From contig CAJGCF010000001.1 of NCBI GenBank assembly GCA_904501865.1, forward strand, positions 1,121 through 65,120: a DNA stretch of 64,000 nt, in the 5' to 3' direction. Origin of the DNA: an uncultured Clostridia bacterium. GTDB lineage: Bacteria; Bacillota; Clostridia; Oscillospirales; CAG-272. The position numbers and the translations under genes are program-made. The notes under the pieces are model-generated. The model had not been told where the DNA came from. It ran no database searches and saw only the letters and a list, made by a program, of their open reading frames with translations. Shown here in pieces: positions 23,399 to 64,000 of this stretch (its first letter is position 1; each line of letters starts with the position of its first letter).

Positions 23399-23767
23399 AT
23401 GGAAACATTCAGTAAATTTATATGGGCATTCGTAATAGGCGGAGCCTTGTGTGTTATTGCCCAGATATTGATAGACAAGACCAAGCTCACACCCGCGAGA
23501 ATACTCGTATGCTACGTGACGGCAGGTGTGGTTCTCGGAGCACTCGGATTGTATAAGCCCATAGTCGACCTCGCGGGAGCGGGAGCGACAGTTCCCCTGA
23601 CGGGTTTCGGCTACCTCATATCCGAGGGAGTAAGGGAGGCTGTGGACAAGCAAGGGCTTCTCGGAGCTCTGACGGGAGGTCTGACTGCCGCCGCAGGCGG
23701 CATTGCGGCAGCATTGATATTCGGCTATCTCGCTGCCGTTCTTTTCAGGGGAAAGAGAAGGGGATAA
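23399..23767 (+). CDS. spoVAE: Stage V sporulation protein AE (SpoVAEb-type small membrane protein)
   Basis: About 122 aa. FIWAFVIGGALCVIAQILID...AGAGATVPLTGFG is the SpoVAC/SpoVAEb family signature. An alternative ATG lies at 23387. The last 163 nt fall inside the duplicated arm. Confidence 0.75.
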   Translation: METFSKFIWAFVIGGALCVIAQILIDKTKLTPARILVCYVTAGVVLGALGLYKPIVDLAGAGATVPLTGFGYLISEGVREAVDKQGLLGALTGGLTAAAGGIAAALIFGYLAAVLFRGKRRG

Positions 23768-23770
23768 TTA

Positions 23771-24460
23771 TTATCCGTCAAGAGCGCTTTTGAGCTTTTC
23801 AAGAGCGCTCTTTTCAATTCTGGAGACGTATGATCGTGAAATGCCGAGCTTTTCGGCTATTTCTCTTTGCGTAAGCTCACGTGTTCCGTACAGACCGTAT
23901 CTCATAACTATTATCTGCCGTTCTCTGAGCGAAAGCACGGACTGAATGCACCGCAGAGCTTTGTCACTCATTATCTTTCGCTCTACCTCGCCCGATATAT
24001 CCTCGTCGCTGCTTATAACGTCTATGTAGGCTAAAGGATTGCCGTCGCGGTCAACGTCGATAGTCTCGTTTATTGATATTTCGGAGGAGTGCTTTTTCTC
24101 GGATCTGAAGCTCATAAGTATCTCGTTTTGAATGCATTTTGAGGCATAGGTGGCAAATCTCGTGCCGTTCTCTATGTTGTAGGTATCAACTGCCTTGACG
24201 AGACCTATCGTACCGATAGATACGAGGTCCTCCTGATTTTTACTCGACGCGTAGTATTTGCGCACTATGTGAGATACCAGACGAAGATTGTGGAGTATTA
24301 AAAGCTGACGTGCGTTTTCGTCTCCCTTCTTCATCAGAAGAAAATTGTTTTTCTCTTCCTCGGCAGAGAGAGTTGGAGGGAAATTTTGCTGTGTCGTTAT
24401 TCCGAGCACAGGAGATAAAAGCTTTGCCAGAGTAGCGAGTATTAATGAAAAAATCAACAT
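23771..24460 (-). CDS. sigK: Sporulation sigma factor SigK (pro-sigma-K), uninterrupted
   Basis: 229 aa. NFPPTLSAEEEK...MKKGDENARQLLILHNLRLVSHIVRKY and TQREIAEKLGISRSYVSRIEKSAL closely parallel B. subtilis pro-sigma-K, including the short pro-sequence. Confidence 0.75.
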   Translation of the reverse strand: MLIFSLILATLAKLLSPVLGITTQQNFPPTLSAEEEKNNFLLMKKGDENARQLLILHNLRLVSHIVRKYYASSKNQEDLVSIGTIGLVKAVDTYNIENGTRFATYASKCIQNEILMSFRSEKKHSSEISINETIDVDRDGNPLAYIDVISSDEDISGEVERKIMSDKALRCIQSVLSLRERQIIVMRYGLYGTRELTQREIAEKLGISRSYVSRIEKSALEKLKSALDG

Positions 24461-24559
24461 ATATCACCTCATTACAGAATTTTTAGCTGTAAGGAGAATA
24501 TATGAAGGCTCGGCATGTACTTATTTTTGCGGACAAAAAGAAAAATTTTTCTATTTGTA

Positions 24560-24588
24560 TTGACATGCTCCGAGAATGGTGGTATAAT
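24560..24588 (+). promoter_or_regulatory. Sigma-A-type promoter for the TPP riboswitch-thiT unit
   Basis: TTGACA (24560-24565), 17 nt spacer, TATAAT (24583-24588). Confidence 0.7.
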
Positions 24589-24619
24589 TATCCCGTTGGG
24601 ATACCAACGTACAACCGCA

Positions 24620-24715
24620 TAAAAAATCAGGGGTGCTTTGCCGACTGCTCGGCAGGCTGAGATGGAGAGATCCAAACCCTTGTACCTGATACGGATAATA
24701 CCGGCGTAGGAAGAT
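24620..24715 (+). promoter_or_regulatory. TPP (THI-box) riboswitch
   Basis: CAGGGGTGC...GGCTGAGA...ACCCTTGTACCTGATACGGATAATACCGGCGTAGGAAG matches the THI-box consensus. It lies upstream of thiT. Confidence 0.85.
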
Positions 24716-24780
24716 TTTGTTGATATATTTGTTGTGATATTACGCGCAAGCCCCATTTTGTGCAGAGTGATATCCTCAGA

Positions 24781-24820
24781 GATTCATCCGACCGTGATTT
24801 TTCGTGCGGATGAATTTTTT
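24781..24820 (+). terminator. Riboswitch expression-platform terminator
   Basis: ATTCATCCG...CGGATGAAT stem followed by TTTTTTATTT, 20 nt before the thiT RBS AAGGAGG. Confidence 0.75.
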
Positions 24821-24839
24821 ATTTAAGGAGGAAATCACA

Positions 24840-25430
24840 ATGAAGAAAAGAATTCTTTGTGTCACAGAGGGTGCTCTTATAATTGCTCTGGCTTATGTTT
24901 TAGAGCTGCTCTGTGTGTGGCTGAATACCATTATGGGTATCGGTGCGCTTTTGCCTTTCGGAGGCACTATAACCGTGAGTATGCTACCCATAGCGTACTA
25001 TTCTTACAGAAGGGGAGCAGCATGGGGACTTGGCGCGGGATTCGTATATGCCCTGATTCAGATGCTTCTCGGATTTTACATTCCACCCGCTAATACTTGG
25101 TGGGCACTTGCTATGTGCGTATTGCTTGACTATATGATAGCCTTTATGGTGGTAGGCTTGGCAGATATATTTGCCAAACCCTTCGGCAAGCATAGGCTCG
25201 CGGGATATTGCGTTGGAGCGGTGGCAGTGTGCCTGATAAGATTTGTCAGTAGCTTTTTGTCGGGTGTGATTTTATGGGGAAGCTACGCGCCTGAGGGAAT
25301 GAACGTATGGGAATACTCACTTGTATACAACGCGTCGTATATGTTGCCTAACGCGTTGCTTACGGGAGTGTTTGCCGTGATAATATGCGCGGCTATGGAC
25401 CCAAAAACCCTTAAGCCAATGAAAAAATAA
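24840..25430 (+). CDS. thiT: ECF-transporter S component for thiamine (ThiT)
   Basis: 196 aa polytopic membrane protein resembling ThiT family members. It is under TPP riboswitch control. Confidence 0.75.
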   Translation: MKKRILCVTEGALIIALAYVLELLCVWLNTIMGIGALLPFGGTITVSMLPIAYYSYRRGAAWGLGAGFVYALIQMLLGFYIPPANTWWALAMCVLLDYMIAFMVVGLADIFAKPFGKHRLAGYCVGAVAVCLIRFVSSFLSGVILWGSYAPEGMNVWEYSLVYNASYMLPNALLTGVFAVIICAAMDPKTLKPMKK

Positions 25431-25750
25431 AGAATAATTAACTTTACTTAACACAAATCTAATAAAATTTAAGTAAACTTAATTAAATCCAAGTAAAAAG
25501 CACCTGTTGCATATGGCGCGTATTCTTAAGGACAGTTTTAAGGATGCGCTACCTATCGACGGGAAATGACAGAGGATGCATTTGTATTCTCTGTCATTTT
25601 TCTTGGTGCCTTCAGACGTGGAAATAACCCCCAGTTCTACTGGGGGAAGAAAAAAAGCTTTAGCAATGAAAAAGCGGCGAGCTATATGCAAGCTGAAAAC
25701 TCCATGGTATAATAAAAGCGGTTTGACACCGCAAAACTATGGAGGTAAAA

Positions 25751-25810
25751 ATGAAAGGAAATAATGAAACTAAAAGTACGGCACACTCAAAATATAGATG
25801 TCAATTATAG
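25751..25810 (+). pseudogene. 19-codon stub resembling the N-terminus of an IS200/IS605-family TnpA (Y1 transposase)
   Basis: A GGAGG RBS precedes MKGNNETKSTAHSKYRCQL*. The segment AHSKYRCQ parallels the conserved (L/S)AH(T/S)(K/R)W.CKYH of IS200 TnpA and then ends in a stop. Hairpins lie upstream (25565-25603, 25628-25646), as at IS200 left ends. Confidence 0.35.
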
Positions 25811-25835
25811 TTATATAAAATGAATAATTGTTATA

Positions 25836-25863
25836 TTGACACACAGGGAGGTTGTAATATAAT
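25836..25863 (+). promoter_or_regulatory. Orphan near-consensus sigma-A promoter
   Basis: TTGACA (25836-25841), 16 nt spacer, TATAAT (25858-25863). It points toward the 3' end of the convergent ABC operon. Confidence 0.5.
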
Positions 25864-25879
25864 TTATGTAAGAGGCGTT

Positions 25880-25987
25880 ATGTATGGTGGAATATTCTAC
25901 CATGGTATCTCTCCGATGTCTCTCCTTAATTGTCCATATATTTCTTTTCGTCTGTATTTCGGTGCAAATACTATATATATTCCATGA
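25880..25987 (+). CDS. Possible 35-aa small ORF (or non-coding sRNA) driven by the orphan promoter
   Basis: AAGAGG RBS 4 nt before the ATG. Translation MYGGIFYHGISPMSLLNCPYISFRLYFGANTIYIP*. It ends 5 nt before the 25993-26027 hairpin. I recognise no family. Confidence 0.2.
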   Translation: MYGGIFYHGISPMSLLNCPYISFRLYFGANTIYIP

Positions 25988-25992
25988 ATGAA

Positions 25993-26027
25993 TTATGCGT
26001 CCCTCGTATATTGCGAGGGACGCATAA
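25993..26027. terminator. Bidirectional stem-loop downstream of the ABC permease
   Basis: TTATGCGTCCCTCG-TATATTG-CGAGGGACGCATAA: a perfect 14-bp stem. Confidence 0.7.
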
Positions 26028-26032
26028 GGGTC

Positions 26033-27214
26033 TTATTTGTTGAACATTATCTTTTCGCTATTGAACATTCTTGTGAGTATAAACACACCTATTCCTGTGA
26101 CTGCCACATTAGCGGCAACGGTAATCAGAATGTTGACTACGTTGAGGTCAAATGAGAAAATGCTTATCATGCACTGAACACTGTTGTAAAGTGGTATCGC
26201 GTAAAAAACAGGACTTGTTGCCGAAGCGCCGAACATTCCCGAAAGACCTATAAGCATAGATGCTATCATAAGTGGCGTGACGTAAGACGATGCCTCTTTA
26301 ACGGTCTTTGCAAATGCGGAAATAATGGATATCACGGATATGAGCACCAGGACAGTAGAGAGAATTACTATGCCAAGCATAGTGTAATCAAGCAGAGTAT
26401 ATACGCTTCCGTCAAGCGTGACCGTGCCACCCATAAGTTTTGGCAGGGAGAGAACAACTCCGAGTGTGCTCGACGTTCCGCTTATCAAAGCCATAACGGA
26501 GAGAGCCAATATCTTGCCTATCGCGATATGGCTTCGCTTTGTGGGGGTTATGAGCAGGGAAGCAATGGTACCTCTTTCCTTTTCACCCGCGATAGACTCA
26601 GGGGCTACCGCCATACATCCCGAGAACAGAAGCATTATAAGGAGCATAGGCATGATCATTGAGAATATCATGCTAGTCATATCCTCCTCGGTAGCGAGGT
26701 CGAACACGGTGTCGATGTCGTTGTTTATGTCAAACCTATTGATCATCTGTGATTCGTGATAATCAAGCAGACTGACCGCACTCTGATATGCCATGGAAGA
26801 GTTCACCGCGGAAGAGTTGTAGTACATCTCAATGTTGGGAGCTGCTGTGCCGCTTGAGATATCGTAATCGTTTACCTTTTTGTCGAAATTTTCGGGGAAT
26901 ACTATTAGCAGATCAAGCTCCTCGTTTTTGATAGATTCCTTATACTTGGAAATCTTGCCACTCTCCGCGTCACTCAGCGAGAAAAGCCCTGATTGAGTAA
27001 AAAGCGCGTTGAGGCTTTCGGGCATATTTTCCACACAGACCGACGGAATGTAATCATCATCGGGCATAAAGGCATCACCCATAGCACCGCCCATAAATGA
27101 GTATATAACGTAGATAAGGATGCCGGGCATAAGTATAGCAACCATAGTACGCCTGTCCTTGAAGAATCGGGAGAGCTCTTTTTTGAAAATAGTGAATATA
27201 GTATTGATCCTCAT
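26033..27214 (-). CDS. ABC-2-type transporter permease (NatB-like)
   Basis: 393 aa. One N-terminal TM, a large extracytoplasmic loop, then 5 C-terminal TMs. Translationally coupled (ATGA) to the upstream ATPase. Confidence 0.75.
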   Translation of the reverse strand: MRINTIFTIFKKELSRFFKDRRTMVAILMPGILIYVIYSFMGGAMGDAFMPDDDYIPSVCVENMPESLNALFTQSGLFSLSDAESGKISKYKESIKNEELDLLIVFPENFDKKVNDYDISSGTAAPNIEMYYNSSAVNSSMAYQSAVSLLDYHESQMINRFDINNDIDTVFDLATEEDMTSMIFSMIMPMLLIMLLFSGCMAVAPESIAGEKERGTIASLLITPTKRSHIAIGKILALSVMALISGTSSTLGVVLSLPKLMGGTVTLDGSVYTLLDYTMLGIVILSTVLVLISVISIISAFAKTVKEASSYVTPLMIASMLIGLSGMFGASATSPVFYAIPLYNSVQCMISIFSFDLNVVNILITVAANVAVTGIGVFILTRMFNSEKIMFNK

Positions 27215-27990: not shown

Positions 27991-28124
27991 TTTTAGTTTT
28001 CCTTTCTGTAATGCTTTTTCAACAGAATTATACGTTTTTCTACTGAAAAAGTCAGTACGTTTTATATATGCGTCATTATTACGTGCACATTCGGTTGCCC
28101 AATCTCATCCCCGAAATCGTCTTT

Positions 28125-29126: not shown

Positions 29127-29154
29127 AATATATTCCTCACTTTGTATATTTTTT

Positions 29155-29413
29155 GAAATAAAAAGTCCCCGACAGAGCTTTTCTCTGTCGGGGACGAATT
29201 GACACAATCAACGTGAATCCGCGGTACCACCCACGATTCGAGGCAAGAGCCTCCTCATAAAAGCATTAACGCTGCCAACGTCTCCCATACTTACGCCTGA
29301 GCGTTTTCTGTTTGCCCTCAAAGGTCCATTCGGCATTTTTTGTTGACCGCACTCACACCAACGGCGGCTCTCTGAGCAATAGGTAAAATGCTTACTAATC
29401 CTTTTCATCGGTT
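29155..29413 (-). promoter_or_regulatory. T-box leader with UGG (Trp) specifier
   Basis: Read on the minus strand (same as the plus strand of 58192-58450). Stem I AGAGAG element. Specifier loop GAAUGGAC with UGG at 29326-29328. T-box AATCGTGGGTGGTACCGCGG. Terminator GTCCCCGACAGAG...CTCTGTCGGGGACTTTTT. Promoter TTGACA-17-TATAAT at 29420-29448. Confidence 0.9.
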
Positions 29414-29454
29414 TGTTACATTATAAATCAAATATTTTGATTTGTCAATAGATT

Positions 29455-35744: not shown

Positions 35745-36052
35745 AGCGTGTGCTGCAAAACGAGGCCATACCAGCCGGGGATTTAGCGGAGCCCTGCACC
35801 TGAAATCCGCTACAGCAGGGGTGGATCCCGCATTTGAGGGCCGAACCTTTACGAATTGAGTCCTATCTGCTGTGTTGACGGGTGGGTCTTGCGCAATTGG
35901 GAGCTGTGAACTATGTCAGAGGGGGAACCAAGCAGCATTAAGCGGTTGACCTGATGTGCCGCGAGGTAGCCTGCCTTGAGCAGAGGGTATGAAGATCGCG
36001 TGGAGGAGAAGTTCGATTTTGCGGTGTATGGTCTCGTTTTGCGGCACACGCT
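35745..36052 (+). ncRNA. ffs: Signal recognition particle RNA, long Bacillus type (with Alu domain)
   Basis: The 5' and 3' ends pair (GTGTGCTGCAAAACGAGGCCATACC / GGTGTATGGTCTCGTTTTGCGGCACAC). Domain IV GUCAGAGGGGGAACCAAGCAGCAUUAAG. Alu-domain blocks parallel B. subtilis scRNA (AGCGGAGCCCTGCACCTGAAATCCGCTACAGCAGGG; GTGTTGACGGGTGGGTCTTGCGCAATTGGGA). Promoter TTGAAA-17-TATAAT at 35677-35705. Conserved position upstream of dnaX. Ends are good to about 10 nt. Confidence 0.9.
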
Positions 36053-38105: not shown

Positions 38106-38705
38106 ATGGCGGAGTACATAGAGTCCTTGCAAAAGCTTGCCGAACAGTTTGGCAGACTTGAGGGCGTAGGAAAAAAGAACGCTATGAAAATGGCATTTTC
38201 CGTGCTCGATATGACGGCTGAGGAGGCCGAGGAGTTTTCCAAGGCTATAATAGAGGCAAAAGAGAAGATACATCTCTGTCCTATATGCCAGAACATAACC
38301 GACAGAGAGGTCTGTCCTATATGCGCGGACCCAAACAGAGACAGAAGAACTGTTTGCATAGTCTCTGACCCAAGAGTAGTTATATCTATGGAGAAGGTCA
38401 GGGAATACAAGGGAACATATCACGTCCTTCACGGAGTTATATCTCCTATGAACGGAATTACCCCCGATAAGCTCAAGATAAAGGAGCTGTTGGCAAGGAT
38501 AGACGATGGAGAGATAGAGGAAGCGATAGTAGCCACCAATCCAACGGTCGAGGGAGAGGCTACCGCTATGTATATATCAAGACTTCTAAAGCCTTTTGAC
38601 ATAAAGGTTACAAGACTTGCATACGGTGTTCCTATGGGAAGTGACCTTGAATATGCCGACGAGATAACACTTTACCGCGCTATCGAGGGCAGACGTGATT
38701 TCTGA
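38106..38705 (+). CDS. recR: Recombination protein RecR
   Basis: 199 aa. HhH region GVGKKNA, C4 zinc finger CPICQN...CPIC, Toprim domain. Confidence 0.95.
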   Translation: MAEYIESLQKLAEQFGRLEGVGKKNAMKMAFSVLDMTAEEAEEFSKAIIEAKEKIHLCPICQNITDREVCPICADPNRDRRTVCIVSDPRVVISMEKVREYKGTYHVLHGVISPMNGITPDKLKIKELLARIDDGEIEEAIVATNPTVEGEATAMYISRLLKPFDIKVTRLAYGVPMGSDLEYADEITLYRAIEGRRDF

Positions 38706-38746
38706 TAACAATACGGGACGGCAAAAGCCGTCCCGTATTGTTATCA
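38703..38746. terminator. 44-nt perfect palindromic bidirectional terminator containing both stop codons
   Basis: TGATAACAATACGGGACGGC-AAAA-GCCGTCCCGTATTGTTATCA. The recR TGA (38703-38705) and the topB stop (38744-38746, minus strand) are the outermost stem bases. Confidence 0.8.
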
Positions 38747-40885
38747 GAAATCAAATATGACCTTATCTCCGTCAAGCTTGAGCTTTGCGTTGAAGGGCTT
38801 TCCGTTTTTGGATACAAAGCCTTGTATCTCCGAGGAGACGCCCTCTGACAAAATCTTCCTGGCGTTTGATATGGAGATAGTACGCTTGCATATAAAGCTG
38901 CCTATTTTGAACTTGCAACCGTCCTTGTATCCCATACAGCCGTAGCCGTACCGACCTTTGACTACGTCCTTCCCGCAAACGGGACACTTTCCTACGAGGT
39001 CCCCGTAAAAGCCCGTGTCGGAGTCGAGTTCAAGAGAAATATCCTTGTGCTCAAACACCTTTGATATCTCATCACACGCAAGACGGACACTGTCGGTTAT
39101 GCTGATGTCGCCTCTGTATACCTTTTTCAATGCCTGACCAAGCTCACTGGTCTTGTATTTATCCATAGATACCCTCATCTGCATAAGCTGCTCGATGAGA
39201 TATTCGCCACCGGGGAGAATAGTATATACGTCCTTTTTGAGCTCAATGTATCCCGAACGCCTTGCGTTTTCTATAATACCCGTTCTTGTTGCCTCTGTTC
39301 CAAGCTCAAGGCCCTCGAATATAGCCTTGTAATCCTCTTCGTCGTTTTCAGTTTCCCCGTCGGGATTGCTCGCCGCGCGCTCTGCGGCGGCCGCCTTGTC
39401 CTCACGGAATGGGTTTTTCAGATAATTGTTGAGCGTCTCGACCGTGTAGTGCTTTGGAGGATTAGTCTGCTTTTCAACAGGACGGAACTCTATATTTACT
39501 CGGTCACCTTTTTCAAGAGAGGGAAGTATCTTGTCCTTTCTCTCGGAATCGTCAAAGCGCATAAAGCCTTTTTGTAGAATGATTATTCCCTTGAGTGTGA
39601 ACTGCTCGTATCCGCCTACGTCAATTACTATTTCTGTCTTTTGAGCGATACATTCTTCCTCACAGAACACCGATACAAATCGGCGGAATACCGTCTGATA
39701 GACCTGCATCTCCTTCTCGCTCAGATGTTCCTTTTTGGGTATCTTGTGAGTGGGGGTAAGAGCAGAGTGGCTCTCTATCTTGGAGTCGTCAAAAATAGTC
39801 TTTTTGTCTTTAAAGACAACAGGATATCCTATGCCCTTTATAGCTCCGATTATTTTTTTGACCTTGTCCTTCTCGTTAGTCGCCATATATTCCGAGTTGG
39901 TTCTCGGATAGGTAAGATAACCCTCCTCATAAAGCTTTTGAACTATGGTAAGGCTGTCCGACATAGACATTTTGTATTTTTTGCTCAGTACGTTCTGGAG
40001 CTTTGAAAGGGAAAACAGCTTTCCGGGGCCTATGGTCTCTTTTTTGGTCTTTTTTGAAACTACGGTCGCATCGCTTGAGTTGTATTTTTTACACAGAGCC
40101 TCGGCTTGTGCCCTTTTGTCCTTATCAAATTTCTCACGACTGACCAGCTCTATCTCCTCGTCTCCTGTCTTTTCCTTTGAGACTGCGGCAAAATATACGT
40201 CTGGAACAAAGTTCCTTATTGCCATATCTCTGTCATAAATTGCACGGACTATGGGGACTATAACACGTCCGACACGCAAAAGCATCCCCGTTTTGAGAGT
40301 AGCGTATCTTGTGAGATTAACTCCGTAAAGCCAATCTATATAGGTGCGAGCAAATCCCTCGTCGGCGAGATTGTCGTATTCGCTCTCGTTCTTCATCTCC
40401 GCCAGTGCTTTTCCGATGGTCTCAGGCGTCTGGTCGGGAAGCCACAAGCGCAAGAATGACTTTTGCCCACCGTCAAGCGCTCCTGTATTCATAACGCACA
40501 AACGGATTATTATTTCCCCCTCTCTGTCCGAGTCTCCCGCGTTTACTATTCTGTCAACGTCATCACGCATACATAAATATTTTATGGTCTCAAACTGACG
40601 CTCAACGCCCGGGTCGACCTTCTTGTCAGACCCCACCTTGAGCTTGAACTTGAATTTCTCCGGAAAGCAGGGAAGATTGTCCATAGACCAGCGCACGCCC
40701 GTGTCTCCACCCGTGTAATCCTCTATGTCGCACAGAGAAAAGAGGTGTCCGAAAGCCCACGTTACAAAATATCCGCCGCCCTCAAAGTATCCGTTTCTCT
40801 TCTGAAGGGAGCAATTATTCATTTGTTGAATACCCTGAACGATATTTCTGGCAAGACTTGGCTTTTCCGCGATTATTACCGTCAT
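38744..40885 (-). CDS. topB: DNA topoisomerase III (type IA) with C-terminal zinc-ribbon domains
   Basis: 713 aa. Toprim IIAEKPS...VTWAFGHL. Active-site context YLTYPRTNS. C-terminal CPVCGK...GYGCMGYKDGCKFKI. Confidence 0.88.
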   Translation of the reverse strand: MTVIIAEKPSLARNIVQGIQQMNNCSLQKRNGYFEGGGYFVTWAFGHLFSLCDIEDYTGGDTGVRWSMDNLPCFPEKFKFKLKVGSDKKVDPGVERQFETIKYLCMRDDVDRIVNAGDSDREGEIIIRLCVMNTGALDGGQKSFLRLWLPDQTPETIGKALAEMKNESEYDNLADEGFARTYIDWLYGVNLTRYATLKTGMLLRVGRVIVPIVRAIYDRDMAIRNFVPDVYFAAVSKEKTGDEEIELVSREKFDKDKRAQAEALCKKYNSSDATVVSKKTKKETIGPGKLFSLSKLQNVLSKKYKMSMSDSLTIVQKLYEEGYLTYPRTNSEYMATNEKDKVKKIIGAIKGIGYPVVFKDKKTIFDDSKIESHSALTPTHKIPKKEHLSEKEMQVYQTVFRRFVSVFCEEECIAQKTEIVIDVGGYEQFTLKGIIILQKGFMRFDDSERKDKILPSLEKGDRVNIEFRPVEKQTNPPKHYTVETLNNYLKNPFREDKAAAAERAASNPDGETENDEEDYKAIFEGLELGTEATRTGIIENARRSGYIELKKDVYTILPGGEYLIEQLMQMRVSMDKYKTSELGQALKKVYRGDISITDSVRLACDEISKVFEHKDISLELDSDTGFYGDLVGKCPVCGKDVVKGRYGYGCMGYKDGCKFKIGSFICKRTISISNARKILSEGVSSEIQGFVSKNGKPFNAKLKLDGDKVIFDF

Positions 40886-42122: not shown

Positions 42123-43778
42123 ATGGGTATTACAGGAAATTTGTATAGAGAGATGGCGCTTTCGGGCGCGGCTTTGCTCAGCAACAAAAAGGAAGAGATA
42201 AACAATCTCAACGTTTTCCCCGTGCCTGACGGCGATACGGGTATCAATATGAGTCTCACGATGAGCACTATCGGAAATACCGCAGAGGGACTCGGAATTG
42301 GCGAGAGCGCAGAAAAGATTGCGGGCTTTATGCTCCGTTCCGCAAGAGGAAACTCGGGAGCTATCCTCTCACTTTTCTTCAGAGGCGTGTCCAAGGCACT
42401 CAAGGGTGTTGATGAGGCAAGCTCAAAGGATATGGTAGAGGCATTCAAAAGAGGTACTACAGAGGCATACCGTGCGGTTATGAAGCCCACAGAGGGAACG
42501 ATACTTACGGTAATGCGTATGTGTGGCGAGGAGGCCGAGAAGGCGTATCTTGCAAACAAGAGAATAAGCGTTAAAAATCTTTTCAAGGTAATACTTAAGG
42601 GTGCCGAGGATGCTTTGGCACAGACACCCGAGATGCTCCCCGTGCTCAAGCAGACGGGAGTAGTCGATGCCGGCGGCGCGGGATTTGTTTGCGTGCTTGA
42701 GGGTATGGTAGCGGCTATGGAGGGTAAGCCTTACGTTGCCGAGCATAGCGCGGACGAGAATAATACTCCTACAGAGATGCGTTCAGGCGCTGATTTCTCG
42801 GATTTCAATACCGATGATATAAAGTTTGGATATTGTACCGAGTGTATAGTCGAAAAGAATGAAAAGTATGCGGGTGAGGATACGTCGGGCGAGCTCTATG
42901 AGTTCATTAAGAGCATTGGTGACAGTGCGGTCTTTGTTGACGACGAGAGCATCATCAAGCTTCATATCCATACCAACGATCCCGGAGCAGTACTTACGAA
43001 GGCGATAGAGTTCGGAAACCTTGCCACCGTTAAAATTGAAAACATGAGAAATCAGCATACTGAACTCATGTCAGGTAACAAGGAAGAGCCTGCACCAAAA
43101 AAATCCCAGCCTGTTATTGAAAAAAAGTACGGATTCGTAAGCGTATGTATGGGTGACGGCATAAAAAATATGTTTACCGACGTCGGAGTCGATAATATCA
43201 TAACAGGCGGACAGACTATGAATCCAAGCACTCAGGATATTATTGACGCTGTTATGAAAACTCCCTCGGAGTACGTATTCATACTTCCCAACAATAAAAA
43301 CATCTGTATGGTTGCAAGGCAGGCATCAGAGATAGTCACCGAGAGAAAGGTAATAGTAATTCCCACAGAGACCGTTCCTCAAGGAATGGCGGCTATGATA
43401 GCATATAATCCCGACGGTGAGCTTGATGAGGTTATCAAGGGTATGCAGGAGGGAGCAGCTATGGTGACTTCTATGTCTGTTACGTTTGCGGTAAGAGATA
43501 CCGAGATAGACAGATTCAACATCAAGAAGGGACAGTACCTTGGTCTCGTTGAAGGAAAGATAGCTTGTGTAAGCAACGACAGCTTCAGTTGTGCAAAGCA
43601 GTTGACAAGAGGAATGACGGGAGCCTCCTACGTTACCGTATTCTACGGTGAAGACGTAAGCGAGGAAAAGGCAGAGAAGTTTGGCGCTCTTGTTTCTGAA
43701 AAGATCGGAGACGGATGTGACGTTGCCGTGCTTTATGGCGGACAGCCTCTTTATGACTACATCATTTCCGTTGAATAA
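42123..43778 (+). CDS. fakA: DAK2-domain protein of the YloV/FakA family (fatty acid kinase ATP-binding subunit-like)
   Basis: 551 aa from the ATG at 42123 (GGAGA RBS). DAK2 motif PDGDTGINM...ARGNSG. C-terminal YloV-type domain. The stop lies 24 nt from the palindrome axis. Confidence 0.75.
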   Translation: MGITGNLYREMALSGAALLSNKKEEINNLNVFPVPDGDTGINMSLTMSTIGNTAEGLGIGESAEKIAGFMLRSARGNSGAILSLFFRGVSKALKGVDEASSKDMVEAFKRGTTEAYRAVMKPTEGTILTVMRMCGEEAEKAYLANKRISVKNLFKVILKGAEDALAQTPEMLPVLKQTGVVDAGGAGFVCVLEGMVAAMEGKPYVAEHSADENNTPTEMRSGADFSDFNTDDIKFGYCTECIVEKNEKYAGEDTSGELYEFIKSIGDSAVFVDDESIIKLHIHTNDPGAVLTKAIEFGNLATVKIENMRNQHTELMSGNKEEPAPKKSQPVIEKKYGFVSVCMGDGIKNMFTDVGVDNIITGGQTMNPSTQDIIDAVMKTPSEYVFILPNNKNICMVARQASEIVTERKVIVIPTETVPQGMAAMIAYNPDGELDEVIKGMQEGAAMVTSMSVTFAVRDTEIDRFNIKKGQYLGLVEGKIACVSNDSFSCAKQLTRGMTGASYVTVFYGEDVSEEKAEKFGALVSEKIGDGCDVAVLYGGQPLYDYIISVE

Positions 43779-43826
43779 TTGAAATAGAGAAATGCCGACG
43801 CATGCGTCGGCATTTCTCTATTTCAA

Positions 43827-46719: not shown

Positions 46720-48861
46720 ATGACGGTAATAATCGCGGAAAAGCCAAGTCTTGCCAGAAATATCGTTCAGGGTATTCAACAAATGAATAATTGCTCCCTT
46801 CAGAAGAGAAACGGATACTTTGAGGGCGGCGGATATTTTGTAACGTGGGCTTTCGGACACCTCTTTTCTCTGTGCGACATAGAGGATTACACGGGTGGAG
46901 ACACGGGCGTGCGCTGGTCTATGGACAATCTTCCCTGCTTTCCGGAGAAATTCAAGTTCAAGCTCAAGGTGGGGTCTGACAAGAAGGTCGACCCGGGCGT
47001 TGAGCGTCAGTTTGAGACCATAAAATATTTATGTATGCGTGATGACGTTGACAGAATAGTAAACGCGGGAGACTCGGACAGAGAGGGGGAAATAATAATC
47101 CGTTTGTGCGTTATGAATACAGGAGCGCTTGACGGTGGGCAAAAGTCATTCTTGCGCTTGTGGCTTCCCGACCAGACGCCTGAGACCATCGGAAAAGCAC
47201 TGGCGGAGATGAAGAACGAGAGCGAATACGACAATCTCGCCGACGAGGGATTTGCTCGCACCTATATAGATTGGCTTTACGGAGTTAATCTCACAAGATA
47301 CGCTACTCTCAAAACGGGGATGCTTTTGCGTGTCGGACGTGTTATAGTCCCCATAGTCCGTGCAATTTATGACAGAGATATGGCAATAAGGAACTTTGTT
47401 CCAGACGTATATTTTGCCGCAGTCTCAAAGGAAAAGACAGGAGACGAGGAGATAGAGCTGGTCAGTCGTGAGAAATTTGATAAGGACAAAAGGGCACAAG
47501 CCGAGGCTCTGTGTAAAAAATACAACTCAAGCGATGCGACCGTAGTTTCAAAAAAGACCAAAAAAGAGACCATAGGCCCCGGAAAGCTGTTTTCCCTTTC
47601 AAAGCTCCAGAACGTACTGAGCAAAAAATACAAAATGTCTATGTCGGACAGCCTTACCATAGTTCAAAAGCTTTATGAGGAGGGTTATCTTACCTATCCG
47701 AGAACCAACTCGGAATATATGGCGACTAACGAGAAGGACAAGGTCAAAAAAATAATCGGAGCTATAAAGGGCATAGGATATCCTGTTGTCTTTAAAGACA
47801 AAAAGACTATTTTTGACGACTCCAAGATAGAGAGCCACTCTGCTCTTACCCCCACTCACAAGATACCCAAAAAGGAACATCTGAGCGAGAAGGAGATGCA
47901 GGTCTATCAGACGGTATTCCGCCGATTTGTATCGGTGTTCTGTGAGGAAGAATGTATCGCTCAAAAGACAGAAATAGTAATTGACGTAGGCGGATACGAG
48001 CAGTTCACACTCAAGGGAATAATCATTCTACAAAAAGGCTTTATGCGCTTTGACGATTCCGAGAGAAAGGACAAGATACTTCCCTCTCTTGAAAAAGGTG
48101 ACCGAGTAAATATAGAGTTCCGTCCTGTTGAAAAGCAGACTAATCCTCCAAAGCACTACACGGTCGAGACGCTCAACAATTATCTGAAAAACCCATTCCG
48201 TGAGGACAAGGCGGCCGCCGCAGAGCGCGCGGCGAGCAATCCCGACGGGGAAACTGAAAACGACGAAGAGGATTACAAGGCTATATTCGAGGGCCTTGAG
48301 CTTGGAACAGAGGCAACAAGAACGGGTATTATAGAAAACGCAAGGCGTTCGGGATACATTGAGCTCAAAAAGGACGTATATACTATTCTCCCCGGTGGCG
48401 AATATCTCATCGAGCAGCTTATGCAGATGAGGGTATCTATGGATAAATACAAGACCAGTGAGCTTGGTCAGGCATTGAAAAAGGTATACAGAGGCGACAT
48501 CAGCATAACCGACAGTGTCCGTCTTGCGTGTGATGAGATATCAAAGGTGTTTGAGCACAAGGATATTTCTCTTGAACTCGACTCCGACACGGGCTTTTAC
48601 GGGGACCTCGTAGGAAAGTGTCCCGTTTGCGGGAAGGACGTAGTCAAAGGTCGGTACGGCTACGGCTGTATGGGATACAAGGACGGTTGCAAGTTCAAAA
48701 TAGGCAGCTTTATATGCAAGCGTACTATCTCCATATCAAACGCCAGGAAGATTTTGTCAGAGGGCGTCTCCTCGGAGATACAAGGCTTTGTATCCAAAAA
48801 CGGAAAGCCCTTCAACGCAAAGCTCAAGCTTGACGGAGATAAGGTCATATTTGATTTCTGA
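46720..48861 (+). CDS. topB: Mirror copy of DNA topoisomerase III
   Basis: Exact mirror of 38744-40885; identical 713-aa translation. Confidence 0.88.
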   Translation: MTVIIAEKPSLARNIVQGIQQMNNCSLQKRNGYFEGGGYFVTWAFGHLFSLCDIEDYTGGDTGVRWSMDNLPCFPEKFKFKLKVGSDKKVDPGVERQFETIKYLCMRDDVDRIVNAGDSDREGEIIIRLCVMNTGALDGGQKSFLRLWLPDQTPETIGKALAEMKNESEYDNLADEGFARTYIDWLYGVNLTRYATLKTGMLLRVGRVIVPIVRAIYDRDMAIRNFVPDVYFAAVSKEKTGDEEIELVSREKFDKDKRAQAEALCKKYNSSDATVVSKKTKKETIGPGKLFSLSKLQNVLSKKYKMSMSDSLTIVQKLYEEGYLTYPRTNSEYMATNEKDKVKKIIGAIKGIGYPVVFKDKKTIFDDSKIESHSALTPTHKIPKKEHLSEKEMQVYQTVFRRFVSVFCEEECIAQKTEIVIDVGGYEQFTLKGIIILQKGFMRFDDSERKDKILPSLEKGDRVNIEFRPVEKQTNPPKHYTVETLNNYLKNPFREDKAAAAERAASNPDGETENDEEDYKAIFEGLELGTEATRTGIIENARRSGYIELKKDVYTILPGGEYLIEQLMQMRVSMDKYKTSELGQALKKVYRGDISITDSVRLACDEISKVFEHKDISLELDSDTGFYGDLVGKCPVCGKDVVKGRYGYGCMGYKDGCKFKIGSFICKRTISISNARKILSEGVSSEIQGFVSKNGKPFNAKLKLDGDKVIFDF

Positions 48862-48899
48862 TAACAATACGGGACGGCTTTTGCCGTCCCGTATTGTTA

Positions 48900-49499
48900 T
48901 CAGAAATCACGTCTGCCCTCGATAGCGCGGTAAAGTGTTATCTCGTCGGCATATTCAAGGTCACTTCCCATAGGAACACCGTATGCAAGTCTTGTAACCT
49001 TTATGTCAAAAGGCTTTAGAAGTCTTGATATATACATAGCGGTAGCCTCTCCCTCGACCGTTGGATTGGTGGCTACTATCGCTTCCTCTATCTCTCCATC
49101 GTCTATCCTTGCCAACAGCTCCTTTATCTTGAGCTTATCGGGGGTAATTCCGTTCATAGGAGATATAACTCCGTGAAGGACGTGATATGTTCCCTTGTAT
49201 TCCCTGACCTTCTCCATAGATATAACTACTCTTGGGTCAGAGACTATGCAAACAGTTCTTCTGTCTCTGTTTGGGTCCGCGCATATAGGACAGACCTCTC
49301 TGTCGGTTATGTTCTGGCATATAGGACAGAGATGTATCTTCTCTTTTGCCTCTATTATAGCCTTGGAAAACTCCTCGGCCTCCTCAGCCGTCATATCGAG
49401 CACGGAAAATGCCATTTTCATAGCGTTCTTTTTTCCTACGCCCTCAAGTCTGCCAAACTGTTCGGCAAGCTTTTGCAAGGACTCTATGTACTCCGCCAT
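48900..49499 (-). CDS. recR: Mirror copy of RecR
   Basis: Exact mirror of 38106-38705; identical 199-aa translation. Confidence 0.95.
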   Translation of the reverse strand: MAEYIESLQKLAEQFGRLEGVGKKNAMKMAFSVLDMTAEEAEEFSKAIIEAKEKIHLCPICQNITDREVCPICADPNRDRRTVCIVSDPRVVISMEKVREYKGTYHVLHGVISPMNGITPDKLKIKELLARIDDGEIEEAIVATNPTVEGEATAMYISRLLKPFDIKVTRLAYGVPMGSDLEYADEITLYRAIEGRRDF

Positions 49500-56112: not shown

Positions 56113-56159
56113 TTAAATGTAATAAAAAAACGGAGAGGTGTGTGCCTCTCCGTTTTTTA

Positions 56160-58150: not shown

Positions 58151-58191
58151 AATCTATTGACAAATCAAAATATTTGATTTATAATGTAACA

Positions 58192-58450
58192 AACCGATGA
58201 AAAGGATTAGTAAGCATTTTACCTATTGCTCAGAGAGCCGCCGTTGGTGTGAGTGCGGTCAACAAAAAATGCCGAATGGACCTTTGAGGGCAAACAGAAA
58301 ACGCTCAGGCGTAAGTATGGGAGACGTTGGCAGCGTTAATGCTTTTATGAGGAGGCTCTTGCCTCGAATCGTGGGTGGTACCGCGGATTCACGTTGATTG
58401 TGTCAATTCGTCCCCGACAGAGAAAAGCTCTGTCGGGGACTTTTTATTTC
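58192..58450 (+). promoter_or_regulatory. Mirror copy of Trp T-box leader
   Basis: Promoter TTGACA (58157-58162), 17 nt spacer, TATAAT (58180-58185). UGG specifier at 58277-58279. T-box GTGGGTGGTACCGCGG around 58366-58386. Terminator at 58410-58450. Confidence 0.9.
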
Positions 58451-58478
58451 AAAAAATATACAAAGTGAGGAATATATT

Positions 58479-59480: not shown

Positions 59481-59614
59481 AAAGACGATTTCGGGGATGA
59501 GATTGGGCAACCGAATGTGCACGTAATAATGACGCATATATAAAACGTACTGACTTTTTCAGTAGAAAAACGTATAATTCTGTTGAAAAAGCATTACAGA
59601 AAGGAAAACTAAAA

Positions 59615-60391: not shown

Positions 60392-61572
60392 TGAGGATCA
60401 ATACTATATTCACTATTTTCAAAAAAGAGCTCTCCCGATTCTTCAAGGACAGGCGTACTATGGTTGCTATACTTATGCCCGGCATCCTTATCTACGTTAT
60501 ATACTCATTTATGGGCGGTGCTATGGGTGATGCCTTTATGCCCGATGATGATTACATTCCGTCGGTCTGTGTGGAAAATATGCCCGAAAGCCTCAACGCG
60601 CTTTTTACTCAATCAGGGCTTTTCTCGCTGAGTGACGCGGAGAGTGGCAAGATTTCCAAGTATAAGGAATCTATCAAAAACGAGGAGCTTGATCTGCTAA
60701 TAGTATTCCCCGAAAATTTCGACAAAAAGGTAAACGATTACGATATCTCAAGCGGCACAGCAGCTCCCAACATTGAGATGTACTACAACTCTTCCGCGGT
60801 GAACTCTTCCATGGCATATCAGAGTGCGGTCAGTCTGCTTGATTATCACGAATCACAGATGATCAATAGGTTTGACATAAACAACGACATCGACACCGTG
60901 TTCGACCTCGCTACCGAGGAGGATATGACTAGCATGATATTCTCAATGATCATGCCTATGCTCCTTATAATGCTTCTGTTCTCGGGATGTATGGCGGTAG
61001 CCCCTGAGTCTATCGCGGGTGAAAAGGAAAGAGGTACCATTGCTTCCCTGCTCATAACCCCCACAAAGCGAAGCCATATCGCGATAGGCAAGATATTGGC
61101 TCTCTCCGTTATGGCTTTGATAAGCGGAACGTCGAGCACACTCGGAGTTGTTCTCTCCCTGCCAAAACTTATGGGTGGCACGGTCACGCTTGACGGAAGC
61201 GTATATACTCTGCTTGATTACACTATGCTTGGCATAGTAATTCTCTCTACTGTCCTGGTGCTCATATCCGTGATATCCATTATTTCCGCATTTGCAAAGA
61301 CCGTTAAAGAGGCATCGTCTTACGTCACGCCACTTATGATAGCATCTATGCTTATAGGTCTTTCGGGAATGTTCGGCGCTTCGGCAACAAGTCCTGTTTT
61401 TTACGCGATACCACTTTACAACAGTGTTCAGTGCATGATAAGCATTTTCTCATTTGACCTCAACGTAGTCAACATTCTGATTACCGTTGCCGCTAATGTG
61501 GCAGTCACAGGAATAGGTGTGTTTATACTCACAAGAATGTTCAATAGCGAAAAGATAATGTTCAACAAATAA
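60391..61572 (+). CDS. Mirror copy of ABC-2 permease
   Basis: Exact mirror of 26033-27214; identical 393-aa translation. Confidence 0.75.
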   Translation: MRINTIFTIFKKELSRFFKDRRTMVAILMPGILIYVIYSFMGGAMGDAFMPDDDYIPSVCVENMPESLNALFTQSGLFSLSDAESGKISKYKESIKNEELDLLIVFPENFDKKVNDYDISSGTAAPNIEMYYNSSAVNSSMAYQSAVSLLDYHESQMINRFDINNDIDTVFDLATEEDMTSMIFSMIMPMLLIMLLFSGCMAVAPESIAGEKERGTIASLLITPTKRSHIAIGKILALSVMALISGTSSTLGVVLSLPKLMGGTVTLDGSVYTLLDYTMLGIVILSTVLVLISVISIISAFAKTVKEASSYVTPLMIASMLIGLSGMFGASATSPVFYAIPLYNSVQCMISIFSFDLNVVNILITVAANVAVTGIGVFILTRMFNSEKIMFNK

Positions 61573-61794
61573 GACCCTTATGCGTCCCTCGCAATATACG
61601 AGGGACGCATAATTCATTCATGGAATATATATAGTATTTGCACCGAAATACAGACGAAAAGAAATATATGGACAATTAAGGAGAGACATCGGAGAGATAC
61701 CATGGTAGAATATTCCACCATACATAACGCCTCTTACATAAATTATATTACAACCTCCCTGTGTGTCAATATAACAATTATTCATTTTATATAA

Positions 61795-61854
61795 CTATAA
61801 TTGACATCTATATTTTGAGTGTGCCGTACTTTTAGTTTCATTATTTCCTTTCAT
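61795..61854 (-). pseudogene. Mirror copy of IS200-like tnpA stub
   Basis: Exact mirror of 25751-25810. Confidence 0.35.
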
Positions 61855-62174
61855 TTTTACCTCCATAGTTTTGCGGTGTCAAACCGCTTTTATTATACCA
61901 TGGAGTTTTCAGCTTGCATATAGCTCGCCGCTTTTTCATTGCTAAAGCTTTTTTTCTTCCCCCAGTAGAACTGGGGGTTATTTCCACGTCTGAAGGCACC
62001 AAGAAAAATGACAGAGAATACAAATGCATCCTCTGTCATTTCCCGTCGATAGGTAGCGCATCCTTAAAACTGTCCTTAAGAATACGCGCCATATGCAACA
62101 GGTGCTTTTTACTTGGATTTAATTAAGTTTACTTAAATTTTATTAGATTTGTGTTAAGTAAAGTTAATTATTCT

Positions 62175-62765
62175 TTATTTTTTCATTGGCTTAAGGGTTT
62201 TTGGGTCCATAGCCGCGCATATTATCACGGCAAACACTCCCGTAAGCAACGCGTTAGGCAACATATACGACGCGTTGTATACAAGTGAGTATTCCCATAC
62301 GTTCATTCCCTCAGGCGCGTAGCTTCCCCATAAAATCACACCCGACAAAAAGCTACTGACAAATCTTATCAGGCACACTGCCACCGCTCCAACGCAATAT
62401 CCCGCGAGCCTATGCTTGCCGAAGGGTTTGGCAAATATATCTGCCAAGCCTACCACCATAAAGGCTATCATATAGTCAAGCAATACGCACATAGCAAGTG
62501 CCCACCAAGTATTAGCGGGTGGAATGTAAAATCCGAGAAGCATCTGAATCAGGGCATATACGAATCCCGCGCCAAGTCCCCATGCTGCTCCCCTTCTGTA
62601 AGAATAGTACGCTATGGGTAGCATACTCACGGTTATAGTGCCTCCGAAAGGCAAAAGCGCACCGATACCCATAATGGTATTCAGCCACACACAGAGCAGC
62701 TCTAAAACATAAGCCAGAGCAATTATAAGAGCACCCTCTGTGACACAAAGAATTCTTTTCTTCAT
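62175..62765 (-). CDS. thiT: Mirror copy of ThiT
   Basis: Exact mirror of 24840-25430; identical translation. Confidence 0.75.
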   Translation of the reverse strand: MKKRILCVTEGALIIALAYVLELLCVWLNTIMGIGALLPFGGTITVSMLPIAYYSYRRGAAWGLGAGFVYALIQMLLGFYIPPANTWWALAMCVLLDYMIAFMVVGLADIFAKPFGKHRLAGYCVGAVAVCLIRFVSSFLSGVILWGSYAPEGMNVWEYSLVYNASYMLPNALLTGVFAVIICAAMDPKTLKPMKK

Positions 62766-62889
62766 TGTGATTTCCTCCTTAAATAAAAAATTCATCCGCA
62801 CGAAAAATCACGGTCGGATGAATCTCTGAGGATATCACTCTGCACAAAATGGGGCTTGCGCGTAATATCACAACAAATATATCAACAAA

Positions 62890-62985
62890 ATCTTCCTACG
62901 CCGGTATTATCCGTATCAGGTACAAGGGTTTGGATCTCTCCATCTCAGCCTGCCGAGCAGTCGGCAAAGCACCCCTGATTTTTTA
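62890..62985 (-). promoter_or_regulatory. Mirror copy of TPP riboswitch
   Basis: Exact mirror of 24620-24715. Confidence 0.85.
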
Positions 62986-63144
62986 TGCGGTTGTACGTTG
63001 GTATCCCAACGGGATAATTATACCACCATTCTCGGAGCATGTCAATACAAATAGAAAAATTTTTCTTTTTGTCCGCAAAAATAAGTACATGCCGAGCCTT
63101 CATATATTCTCCTTACAGCTAAAAATTCTGTAATGAGGTGATAT

Positions 63145-63834
63145 ATGTTGATTTTTTCATTAATACTCGCTACTCTGGCAAAGCTTTTATCTCCTGTGCT
63201 CGGAATAACGACACAGCAAAATTTCCCTCCAACTCTCTCTGCCGAGGAAGAGAAAAACAATTTTCTTCTGATGAAGAAGGGAGACGAAAACGCACGTCAG
63301 CTTTTAATACTCCACAATCTTCGTCTGGTATCTCACATAGTGCGCAAATACTACGCGTCGAGTAAAAATCAGGAGGACCTCGTATCTATCGGTACGATAG
63401 GTCTCGTCAAGGCAGTTGATACCTACAACATAGAGAACGGCACGAGATTTGCCACCTATGCCTCAAAATGCATTCAAAACGAGATACTTATGAGCTTCAG
63501 ATCCGAGAAAAAGCACTCCTCCGAAATATCAATAAACGAGACTATCGACGTTGACCGCGACGGCAATCCTTTAGCCTACATAGACGTTATAAGCAGCGAC
63601 GAGGATATATCGGGCGAGGTAGAGCGAAAGATAATGAGTGACAAAGCTCTGCGGTGCATTCAGTCCGTGCTTTCGCTCAGAGAACGGCAGATAATAGTTA
63701 TGAGATACGGTCTGTACGGAACACGTGAGCTTACGCAAAGAGAAATAGCCGAAAAGCTCGGCATTTCACGATCATACGTCTCCAGAATTGAAAAGAGCGC
63801 TCTTGAAAAGCTCAAAAGCGCTCTTGACGGATAA
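63145..63834 (+). CDS. sigK: Mirror copy of SigK
   Basis: Exact mirror of 23771-24460; identical 229-aa translation. Confidence 0.75.
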   Translation: MLIFSLILATLAKLLSPVLGITTQQNFPPTLSAEEEKNNFLLMKKGDENARQLLILHNLRLVSHIVRKYYASSKNQEDLVSIGTIGLVKAVDTYNIENGTRFATYASKCIQNEILMSFRSEKKHSSEISINETIDVDRDGNPLAYIDVISSDEDISGEVERKIMSDKALRCIQSVLSLRERQIIVMRYGLYGTRELTQREIAEKLGISRSYVSRIEKSALEKLKSALDG

Positions 63835-63837
63835 TAA

Positions 63838-64000
63838 TTATCCCCTTCTCTTTCCCCTGAAAAGAACGGCAGCGAGATAGCCGAATATCAATGCTGCCGC
63901 AATGCCGCCTGCGGCGGCAGTCAGACCTCCCGTCAGAGCTCCGAGAAGCCCTTGCTTGTCCACAGCCTCCCTTACTCCCTCGGATATGAGGTAGCCGAAA
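63838..64000 (-). CDS. spoVAE: Mirror copy of the spoVAE 3' portion, cut by the window end
   Basis: Reverse complement of 23605-23767, checked base by base by eye. The gene start would lie at about 64207-64219, outside the window. Confidence 0.7.
   Translation of the reverse strand, partial: FGYLISEGVREAVDKQGLLGALTGGLTAAAGGIAAALIFGYLAAVLFRGKRRG

Follow-up and report, generated by a model that had tools for sequence, protein, structure and literature searches.

The window analysed here, a stretch of 64,000 nt, represents a piece of the chromosome of a spore-forming, uncultured Clostridia MAG from the gut, and behind one of its genes the sequence turns and runs back along its own other strand. 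The question is whether the chromosome of this organism carries a giant palindrome or whether the contig alone does. In a base-by-base comparison (x <-> 87605-x), positions 43803-64000 matched the reverse complement of 23605-43802 at every one of 20,198 bp, with neither mismatch nor indel. The arms are joined without a spacer at the axis 43802/43803, and a 25-mer census of the window returned a single inverted diagonal at sum 87605 (40,372 k-mers), the sole other repeat being a hairpin with a 27-bp stem at 38696-38753, plus its mirror copy. The first-pass annotation had described a perfect, spacer-less inverted duplication of at least 20.2 kb obeying this same reflection, with mismatches or indels as the evidence that would tell against the word "perfect", and had noted that the match continues at the window end; the exhaustive comparison bears out all of this. 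Since the match, unbroken up to base 64000, is still running there, 23605 is the reflection of the window end and no biological boundary; it falls within a SpoVAC/SpoVAEB ORF. The features of the window are as follows.

1-23604, + strand: left part, single-copy chromosomal sequence within the window (Pfam annotation).
23605-43802, + strand: left arm, genuine chromosomal sequence (collinear with the related contigs L054-L058; annotation).
42123-43778, + strand: fakA/yloV, encoding a DAK2-domain fusion protein of 551 aa, the final gene before the turn (NCBIfam TIGR03599).
43788-43817, no strand: native 30-bp spacer-less perfect palindrome AGAAATGCCGACGCA/TGCGTCGGCATTTCT (the same 30-mer stands in the native context of L056 and at the end of L054).
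43818-64000, - strand: mirrored non-native stretch, reverse complement of 23605-43787 (native downstream DNA and proteins without a match in the window).

The left part encodes glycogen phosphorylase, alpha-amylase, enolase, AddA/AddB, an HtrA-like protease, a two-component system and SpoVAD/SpoVAC according to Pfam. It is predicted to be unique only since the window ends at 64000, its mirror then lying at 64001-87604. The left arm carries, in this order, sigK, a TPP riboswitch with thiT, an ABC transporter, a T-box with trpS, an aminotransferase gene, polA, a nitroreductase gene, the SRP RNA, dnaX, ybaB, recR, a topB-like gene, degV (fakB-like) and fakA/yloV; SRP RNA, T-box and TPP riboswitch were all detected in the arm. 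The fakA/yloV product reached 568 bits against NCBIfam TIGR03599 YloV (cut-off 396) and is identical to protein P0122, encoded on an NCBI contig of 89,844 bp. The normally single-copy core genes named in the first-pass annotation were upheld for polA, dnaX, recR, trpS (above the cut-off of NCBIfam TIGR00233), ffs (the SRP RNA) and sigK (above the cut-off of the SigK subfamily model NF004471), but not for topB, as the topoisomerase III scored under the NCBIfam cut-offs and "topB" is its best match only. The phosphorylase gene (513-2936) and the arm genes lie on the same 89,844-bp contig, to which all window proteins map, those of the unique part and of the arms alike; its length is an even number, 2 x 44,922, and permits two arms of 44,922 bp.

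The axis 43802/43803 is the exact centre of the native palindrome, which is perfect over 30 bp and extends to 42 bp with one mismatch. No other spacer-less palindrome of more than 16 bp occurs in the 43.8-kb arm (scan of 1-43780). It forms the core of a terminator-like hairpin that lies 10-39 nt past the stop of fakA/yloV, in the gap where this gene and the DHHW-family gene converge. The native RNA is predicted to fold with -30.3 kcal/mol (z = -6.9) into a stem of about 21-23 bp. A simple terminator scan called no site at the native locus because the stem takes up most of the T-run; the designation terminator-like is based on the predicted fold, a U-rich tail and the location of the site between two genes that converge. 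Native sequence gives way to mirrored sequence at some point within 43788-43817.

What follows fakA in the native chromosome can be read from related contigs, with which the left arm is collinear at 99.94% (L054), 99.06% (L056), 98.1% (L055) and about 90% identity (L057/L058). L056, which belongs to the same species, has the same hairpin and shares the sequence through axis+15, from where it continues with TTATTTTATTATCTGCG... into the convergent DHHW-family gene. The first difference between native and mirrored sequence is at 43818 (axis+16), where the window has C and L056 has T, the first base of the TTA that represents the TAA stop of the convergent gene; in the window, the C at 43818 is followed by the mirrored bases CTATTTCAATTA. 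Downstream of fakA, L057 and L058 contain a DHHW/ALGX-family gene, MBOAT, an ECF-S component and a Mur-ligase/FolC-like gene, among others. Past the palindrome the true genome goes elsewhere (L056; L057/L058), and neither its native downstream DNA nor the proteins encoded there had a counterpart at any point of the window by blastn or tblastx. L054, a MEGAHIT k141 contig, breaks off precisely at axis+15, the final base that the native path shares with the mirrored one, and L055 diverges 5 nt past the fakA stop, i.e. before the hairpin. Among the public contigs of this 90%-identity fakA cluster none folds back. Homologous hairpins lie 3' of fakA in L001, L002, L012 and L057/58, and in the closest genomes of other species a homologous GCCGACG...CGTCGGC hairpin directly follows fakA and is succeeded by a T-tract and unrelated sequence. 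A 37-nt pattern from the junction region matched neither a fold-back nor a native junction in JGI metagenome contigs, and the species seems to be absent from that collection; among GTDB species representatives the best fakA match had 84% amino-acid identity. The close relatives in public data are all short-read MAGs, with contig names of the k141_ or NODE_ type.

Altogether, the giant palindrome is almost certainly not biology. We hold with high confidence that it is a misassembled contig and not a chromosomal structure, and that the native palindrome nucleated the fold-back as an artefact of assembly or library preparation. From the sequence comparison we infer an artefact because the same species continues normally after fakA, the turn sits exactly on the native palindrome, and a near-identical, independent contig breaks at the palindrome edge; these observations support the artefactual fold-back that was the preferred reading of the first-pass annotation. 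The traces expected of a misassembly are present, namely exact arms with neither spacer nor divergence and an axis within a native palindrome that gives a palindromic (k-1)-mer. Because a turn made in silico, in vitro or in vivo would yield the same junction, the sequence alone has no power to separate these three routes.

The assembly route could have operated as follows. In the real genome, fakA/yloV is succeeded by the hairpin with its 30-bp palindromic core and then by the convergent DHHW-family gene. A strand-merging de Bruijn graph converts a palindromic (k-1)-suffix into an "inverted loop", a legal edge onto the sequence's own reverse complement, and with this palindrome the loop arises at k <= 31, a range covering the early k values of multi-k metagenome assemblers. 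If the native continuation were missing or pruned, because coverage was low, strains varied immediately downstream or reads across the GC-rich hairpin were poor, the sole remaining path would lead through the palindrome and back along the other strand. The outcome would be a palindromic contig without spacer or mismatches, its arm as long as the upstream unitig. A toy model, the doubled de Bruijn graph of the native locus, behaved in this manner: with the native-downstream k-mers missing, the maximal unitig at k = 21-31 crossed the palindrome and returned as its reverse complement with the axis at 43802/43803, while at k >= 33 it did not fold back. At k = 31 with all k-mers present it stopped at axis+15, as L054 does. 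The palindrome (30 or 42 bp) is far below a typical final k of 55-141, and the false junction would thus have been carried over from a small-k round or backed by chimeric reads; we infer that it survived to the final k in one of these two ways. Snap-back fold-back reads, arising when a strand is filled in during library preparation, would supply the identical false junction and may have contributed. The source is most plausibly a short-read de Bruijn assembly in which the native branch was lost.

The main cause may instead have been a wet-lab event, in which a hairpin-ended single strand primed itself and was extended in end-repair, MDA or long-read library preparation, the assembler then following the product faithfully. 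We regard this as possible but hold it only tentatively. The sequence turns at an inverted repeat that could fold back and prime itself, and the native stem of about 21-23 bp with its fold of -30.3 kcal/mol is well suited to snapping back. Sonication and enzymatic libraries are documented to yield chimeric artefact reads where the template has inverted repeats or palindromes (PMC10908179), and ONT and PacBio to yield foldback reads (PMC12870357); reads of this kind would give junction k-mers longer than the 30-bp palindrome. However, the stronger hairpin at 38696-38753 in the same arm, with a perfect 27-bp stem and an AAAA loop, was assembled straight through, and the turn was taken at the sole spacer-less site, a property that matters to a k-mer graph and not to a polymerase. 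Chimeric reads are, moreover, normally a small minority that the native path outcompetes unless it is missing too. The several artefact routes listed in the first-pass annotation fared differently: snap-back priming at the hairpin accounts for the axis, as the inverted loop of a de Bruijn graph does, whereas a missed SMRTbell/hairpin adapter, or template and complement misread as one, would put the axis at an arbitrary fragment end. Missed-adapter long-read foldbacks would not centre on a hairpin, and we down-weighted these routes, as they predict no axis on the only long palindrome.

A real inverted duplication or palindromic amplification, arising in vivo at the terminator palindrome through snap-back repair or a template switch, for instance after a break, and present as a true head-to-head duplication in the sampled population, is very improbable. 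The sequence itself is compatible with it, and the junction lies exactly at a short palindrome, the type of site where such junctions form; work from the Roth laboratory in Salmonella reportedly places the junctions of tandem inversion duplications at short palindromes or quasi-palindromes. Against it stand the lack of any divergence and the full symmetry of the junction over more than 40 kb, in a structure that would have to dominate the population to become the MAG consensus. To our knowledge, long spacer-less palindromes are not maintained in bacteria, owing to SbcCD cleavage and replication slippage. Furthermore, the structure was absent from the public fakA-cluster contigs, in which L056, L057 and L058 continue into the DHHW-family gene, L055 diverges and L054 ends at the hairpin; none of the native downstream genes occurs in the window; and the even length of 89,844 bp would fit a mirror of the whole contig without a unique far flank. 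The specific scenario of a chromosome in the gut population that broke at, or was replicated back through, the palindromic fakA terminator, giving a head-to-head duplication or a hairpin-capped arm in sufficient abundance to be assembled, is a shade less probable again; if true, it would be a chromosome rearrangement driven by a palindrome and caught in nature, in a Clostridia species that is uncultured.

Replicated hairpin telomeres, such as the substrates of Borrelia ResT and phage N15 TelN, are spacer-less palindromes. This form is the sole point in favour of reading the site as a dimer junction, the replicated telomere of a linear replicon with hairpin ends, or as a replicon dimer joined head to head, the alternative raised in the first-pass annotation, which is barely credible and which we rejected because the relatives are collinear through the site: it is an intergenic hairpin between convergent genes that L056-L058, and likewise other species, read through into conserved neighbours, the content is ordinary chromosomal housekeeping and sporulation genes, and the annotated window ORFs of at least 100 aa include no gene for a telomere resolvase or an integrase and none of phage/plasmid type.

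The significance of the misassembly lies in data hygiene and not in biology. Of this GenBank MAG contig of 89.8 kb, roughly half is probably a phantom copy, which doubles the single-copy markers polA, dnaX, recR, trpS, SRP RNA and sigK, skews estimates of completeness and contamination along with analyses of pangenomes and copy number, and conceals the true junction between fakA and the DHHW-family gene. The locus also suggests a checkable rule, namely that a native spacer-less palindrome of at least about k-1 bases beside a coverage gap suffices for a giant palindromic contig; contigs with their axis on such a palindrome could be trimmed automatically.

Among known systems, tandem inversion duplications and palindromic amplifications resemble this locus in having a junction at a short native palindrome and arms that are inverted copies. 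Real instances possess a second junction as well as unique flanks, deletion soon remodels their symmetric junctions, and they are seen under dosage selection. None of these traits is visible in the window, which ends within the right arm, and the native alleles found in this species are collinear. Chimeras from library preparation, formed at palindromes or inverted repeats (PMC10908179), and long-read foldbacks (PMC12870357) share with this contig the joining of a strand to its own complement at such a site. Such events, however, affect single reads, span from a few hundred bases up to the length of one read and are usually in the minority, and a contig with arms of more than 20 kb would also need the assembler's preference. 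Inverted loops of assembly graphs have also been described: a maximal unitig with no way out other than such a loop becomes a perfect palindrome, unitigs of this type are unsafe at low coverage, and SPAdes and MEGAHIT were shown to run through palindromes instead of splitting them (Rahman and Medvedev 2022, PMC9528984). At k <= 31 the toy graph built for the present locus behaved likewise, but that study treated small cases and synthetic 1-kb palindromes, whereas here the arms exceed 20 kb (probably 44.9 kb) and the native palindrome measures 30 bp. In a pangenome study of M. bovis, 81 whole-contig palindromes with identical reverse-complement gene copies were judged to be assembly errors, their gene duplicates of identical DNA inflating the gene counts (PMC9455707). 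In those contigs, as is expected here, the second half is the exact reverse complement of the first; they came from SPAdes isolate genomes and their nucleating sequence was not described, whereas at this locus both the nucleating palindrome and the true downstream sequence are identified.

Comparison of every position x of 23605-43802 with the complement at 87605-x detected no mismatch, no indel and no spacer, which bears out the exact spacer-less mirror claimed in the first-pass annotation. The axis lies between 43802 and 43803, within ...AAATGCCGACGCA|TGCGTCGGCATTT..., and the match is unbroken up to base 64000. Because it continues there, the left limit at 23605, which falls mid-gene in a SpoVAC/SpoVAEB ORF, is a mere reflection of the window edge. 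The mirror forms the single inverted diagonal in the window, and the only other repeat in a 25-mer census was a hairpin at 38696-38753 with its mirror image. GC- and AT-skew profiles reverse sign at the axis, as a mirror demands. The source GenBank contig measures 89,844 bp, an even number equal to 2 x 44,922; a palindrome spanning the whole contig would require the window to start at contig base 1,121. For P0122, a protein identical to the product of the window fakA (yloV; 42123..43778, + strand), the last gene before the turn, one NCBI contig of 89,844 bp was found, and the phosphorylase of the unique part as well as polA and the topoisomerase of the arm each likewise map to one contig of this length; the window is accordingly a 64-kb segment of that GenBank contig.

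The window consists of ordinary chromosomal DNA from a spore-forming member of the Clostridia and has the following features:

1-23604: genes for glycogen phosphorylase, alpha-amylase, enolase, AddA/AddB, an HtrA-like protease, a two-component system and SpoVAD/SpoVAC
4892-6208, + strand: 439-aa ORF between the alpha-amylase and enolase genes
Arm, gene order: SigK, TPP riboswitch and thiamine transporter, ABC transporter, T-box and trpS, aminotransferase, polA
Arm, gene order continued: nitroreductase, large SRP RNA, dnaX, ybaB, recR, topoisomerase-III-like gene, DegV protein, fakA/yloV
24619-24729, + strand: TPP riboswitch upstream of a ThiT/YuaJ-type thiamine transporter gene
29187-29417, - strand: T-box leader upstream of trpS
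35766-36031, + strand: large (Bacillus-type) SRP RNA upstream of dnaX
38696-38753, mirrored at 48852-48909: hairpin with a perfect 27-bp stem and an asymmetric AAAA loop, 58 nt in total
38744-40885, - strand: type IA topoisomerase of 713 aa, with topoisomerase III models as best matches

No tRNA genes were found in the window. The genomes closest to it are MAGs of uncultured Oscillospiraceae/Eubacteriales recovered from animal guts, and fakA identity among species representatives is at most 84%. The combinations of TPP riboswitch and transporter, T-box and trpS, and SRP RNA and dnaX are standard Firmicutes arrangements; the mirror alone accounts for the second copy of each of these RNAs in the window. 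Assignment of the 713-aa protein, previously labelled topB, to the type IA enzymes and its closest similarity to topoisomerase III hold, but its identity as TopB is not confirmed, since the scores stay below the curated cut-offs of the topoisomerase III models (397 vs 597 bits; 380 vs 516). It carries a C-terminal Toprim_Crpt repeat and is a divergent topoisomerase-III-like protein. The 439-aa ORF had no Pfam match at E <= 1e-5 and displayed weak sub-threshold NCBIfam similarity to FolC/Mur-ligase-type enzymes (44 bits vs a cut-off of 163). Its TTG start lies ~80 nt inside the preceding gene, so the true start is probably further downstream.

Contigs whose fakA proteins fall into the 90%-identity cluster of the window protein were collected and compared with the window. 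Past the fakA stop, the Logan contig L056 (99.06% identity to the window) reads TTGAAATAGAGAAATGCCGACGCA|TGCGTCGGCATTTCT, the same as the window; beyond this shared stretch it continues with TTATTTTATTATCTGCGCGAG..., in which a convergent gene has its 3’ end; the TAA stop of that gene corresponds to TTA at axis+16 to +18 (nucleotides counted away from the centre). The same arrangement was found in L057 and L058 (~90% identity to the window), where the downstream genes encode DHHW/ALGX-family, MBOAT, ECF-S component, Mur-ligase/FolC-like and other proteins. The window first departs from this native sequence exactly at axis+16, with C, the complement of G at axis-16, versus native T, and from there onward it repeats its upstream sequence as the reverse complement. 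Neither the native downstream DNA nor its proteins matched anywhere in the window. In more distant species, a homologous GCCGACG...CGTCGGC hairpin directly follows fakA and is succeeded by a T-tract and unrelated sequence. Together with the native junction in L056-L058, this places the axis at the centre of a native hairpin, exact to the base.

The core of this hairpin is a 30-bp spacer-less perfect palindrome (43788-43817; ...AGAAATGCCGACGCATGCGTCGGCATTTCTTTATTTTATTATCTG...), which extends to 42 bp if one G·T position is allowed. No other spacer-less palindrome in the 43.8-kb arm exceeds 16 bp. Had the fold-back point been random, as with a missed adapter or at a fragment end, the chance of hitting this site would be roughly 1 in 40,000. 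The predicted folding energy of the native RNA is -30.3 kcal/mol (z = -6.9) for the fakA strand and -23.6 kcal/mol for its complement, and the tails are U-rich, which fits a bidirectional terminator between convergent genes; a simple consensus scan did not call a terminator at this site.

None of the other public contigs of the fakA cluster folds back: three continue past the hairpin into the DHHW-family gene, one departs shortly before reaching the hairpin, and one stops at it. The diverging contig (GCA_054298075.1, JAZOYD010000013.1, 11657-11900), from a strain 98% identical upstream, departs completely 5 nt past the fakA stop and ends 244 nt further on; the different sequence in between has hairpins of its own (ACCACCGGTTCAACCGGTGGT, GCCCCTATAAGGGGC, ACCCCTAAAAGGGGC). 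Synteny thus breaks at strain level in the intergenic region 3’ of fakA, possibly due to an inserted repeat or mobile element, and in mixed samples such variation would lower the coverage of the native branch. The contig ending at the hairpin, L054 (ena:ERZ27234998:k141_156158), was assembled independently with MEGAHIT (k141), is 56,247 bp long and shares 99.94% identity with the window. Its end falls exactly on axis+15 (locus end 11695 = contig end), the last base common to the native and mirrored paths, where an unresolved branch between the two would end a contig. This stop 15 nt past the palindrome centre implies that the same hairpin disrupts or misdirects assembly in at least two data sets.

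In a strand-merged de Bruijn graph, a k-mer with a palindromic (k-1)-suffix gives rise to an inverted loop, and where no other exit exists, the maximal unitig becomes a perfect palindrome; such unitigs are unsafe at low coverage, and palindromes are traversed by both SPAdes and MEGAHIT (PMC9528984). We built a toy doubled de Bruijn graph of the native locus from the window upstream and the L056 downstream sequence. With the native-downstream k-mers missing, the unitig crossed the palindrome and returned on the reverse complement at k = 21, 27, 29 and 31, producing a spacer-less mirror with the same axis as the window, and did not turn back at k = 33 and above. With all k-mers present at k = 31, it halted at axis+15, like L054.

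Altogether, the native junction, the axis palindrome, the L054 end and the toy graph support and sharpen the earlier reading of the mirror as an artefact. It is very probably a misassembly whose fold-back was nucleated by a native palindromic terminator, and not a biological feature. Since typical final k values far exceed the length of the native palindrome, the false turn would have needed either to be retained from an earlier round with small k, as happens in multi-k assembly, or to find support in chimeric reads. Fold-back chimeric reads, which form at inverted repeats and palindromes in library preparation (PMC10908179) and also occur in long-read data (PMC12870357), could provide or strengthen this false junction. 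However, the 38696-38753 hairpin of the same arm, located between convergent recR (stop 38705) and the topoisomerase-III-like gene (stop 38744), overlapping the 3’ ends of both ORFs and probably a bidirectional terminator, is stronger than the axis hairpin and was nevertheless assembled straight through, so that a k-mer-graph cause fits somewhat better than polymerase snap-back.

Turns at the axis hairpin in silico, in vitro or in vivo are alike in sequence alone. Still, a real in vivo inverted duplication is very unlikely: it needs a perfectly symmetric junction across >40 kb, which to our knowledge bacteria do not tolerate owing to SbcCD cleavage and replication slippage, and it would have to dominate the population and differ from every other public contig of the fakA cluster. 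A hairpin telomere or dimer junction, entertained in the first-pass annotation as a hairpin-ended or dimeric replicon, is scarcely credible, being contradicted by the collinear relatives and the housekeeping gene content.

As a case of contamination-like error in a public MAG, the window mirror is a clean one with a mechanistic explanation. Whole-contig palindromes with identical reverse-complement gene copies are on record from bacterial short-read assemblies and were judged to be assembly errors (PMC9455707).
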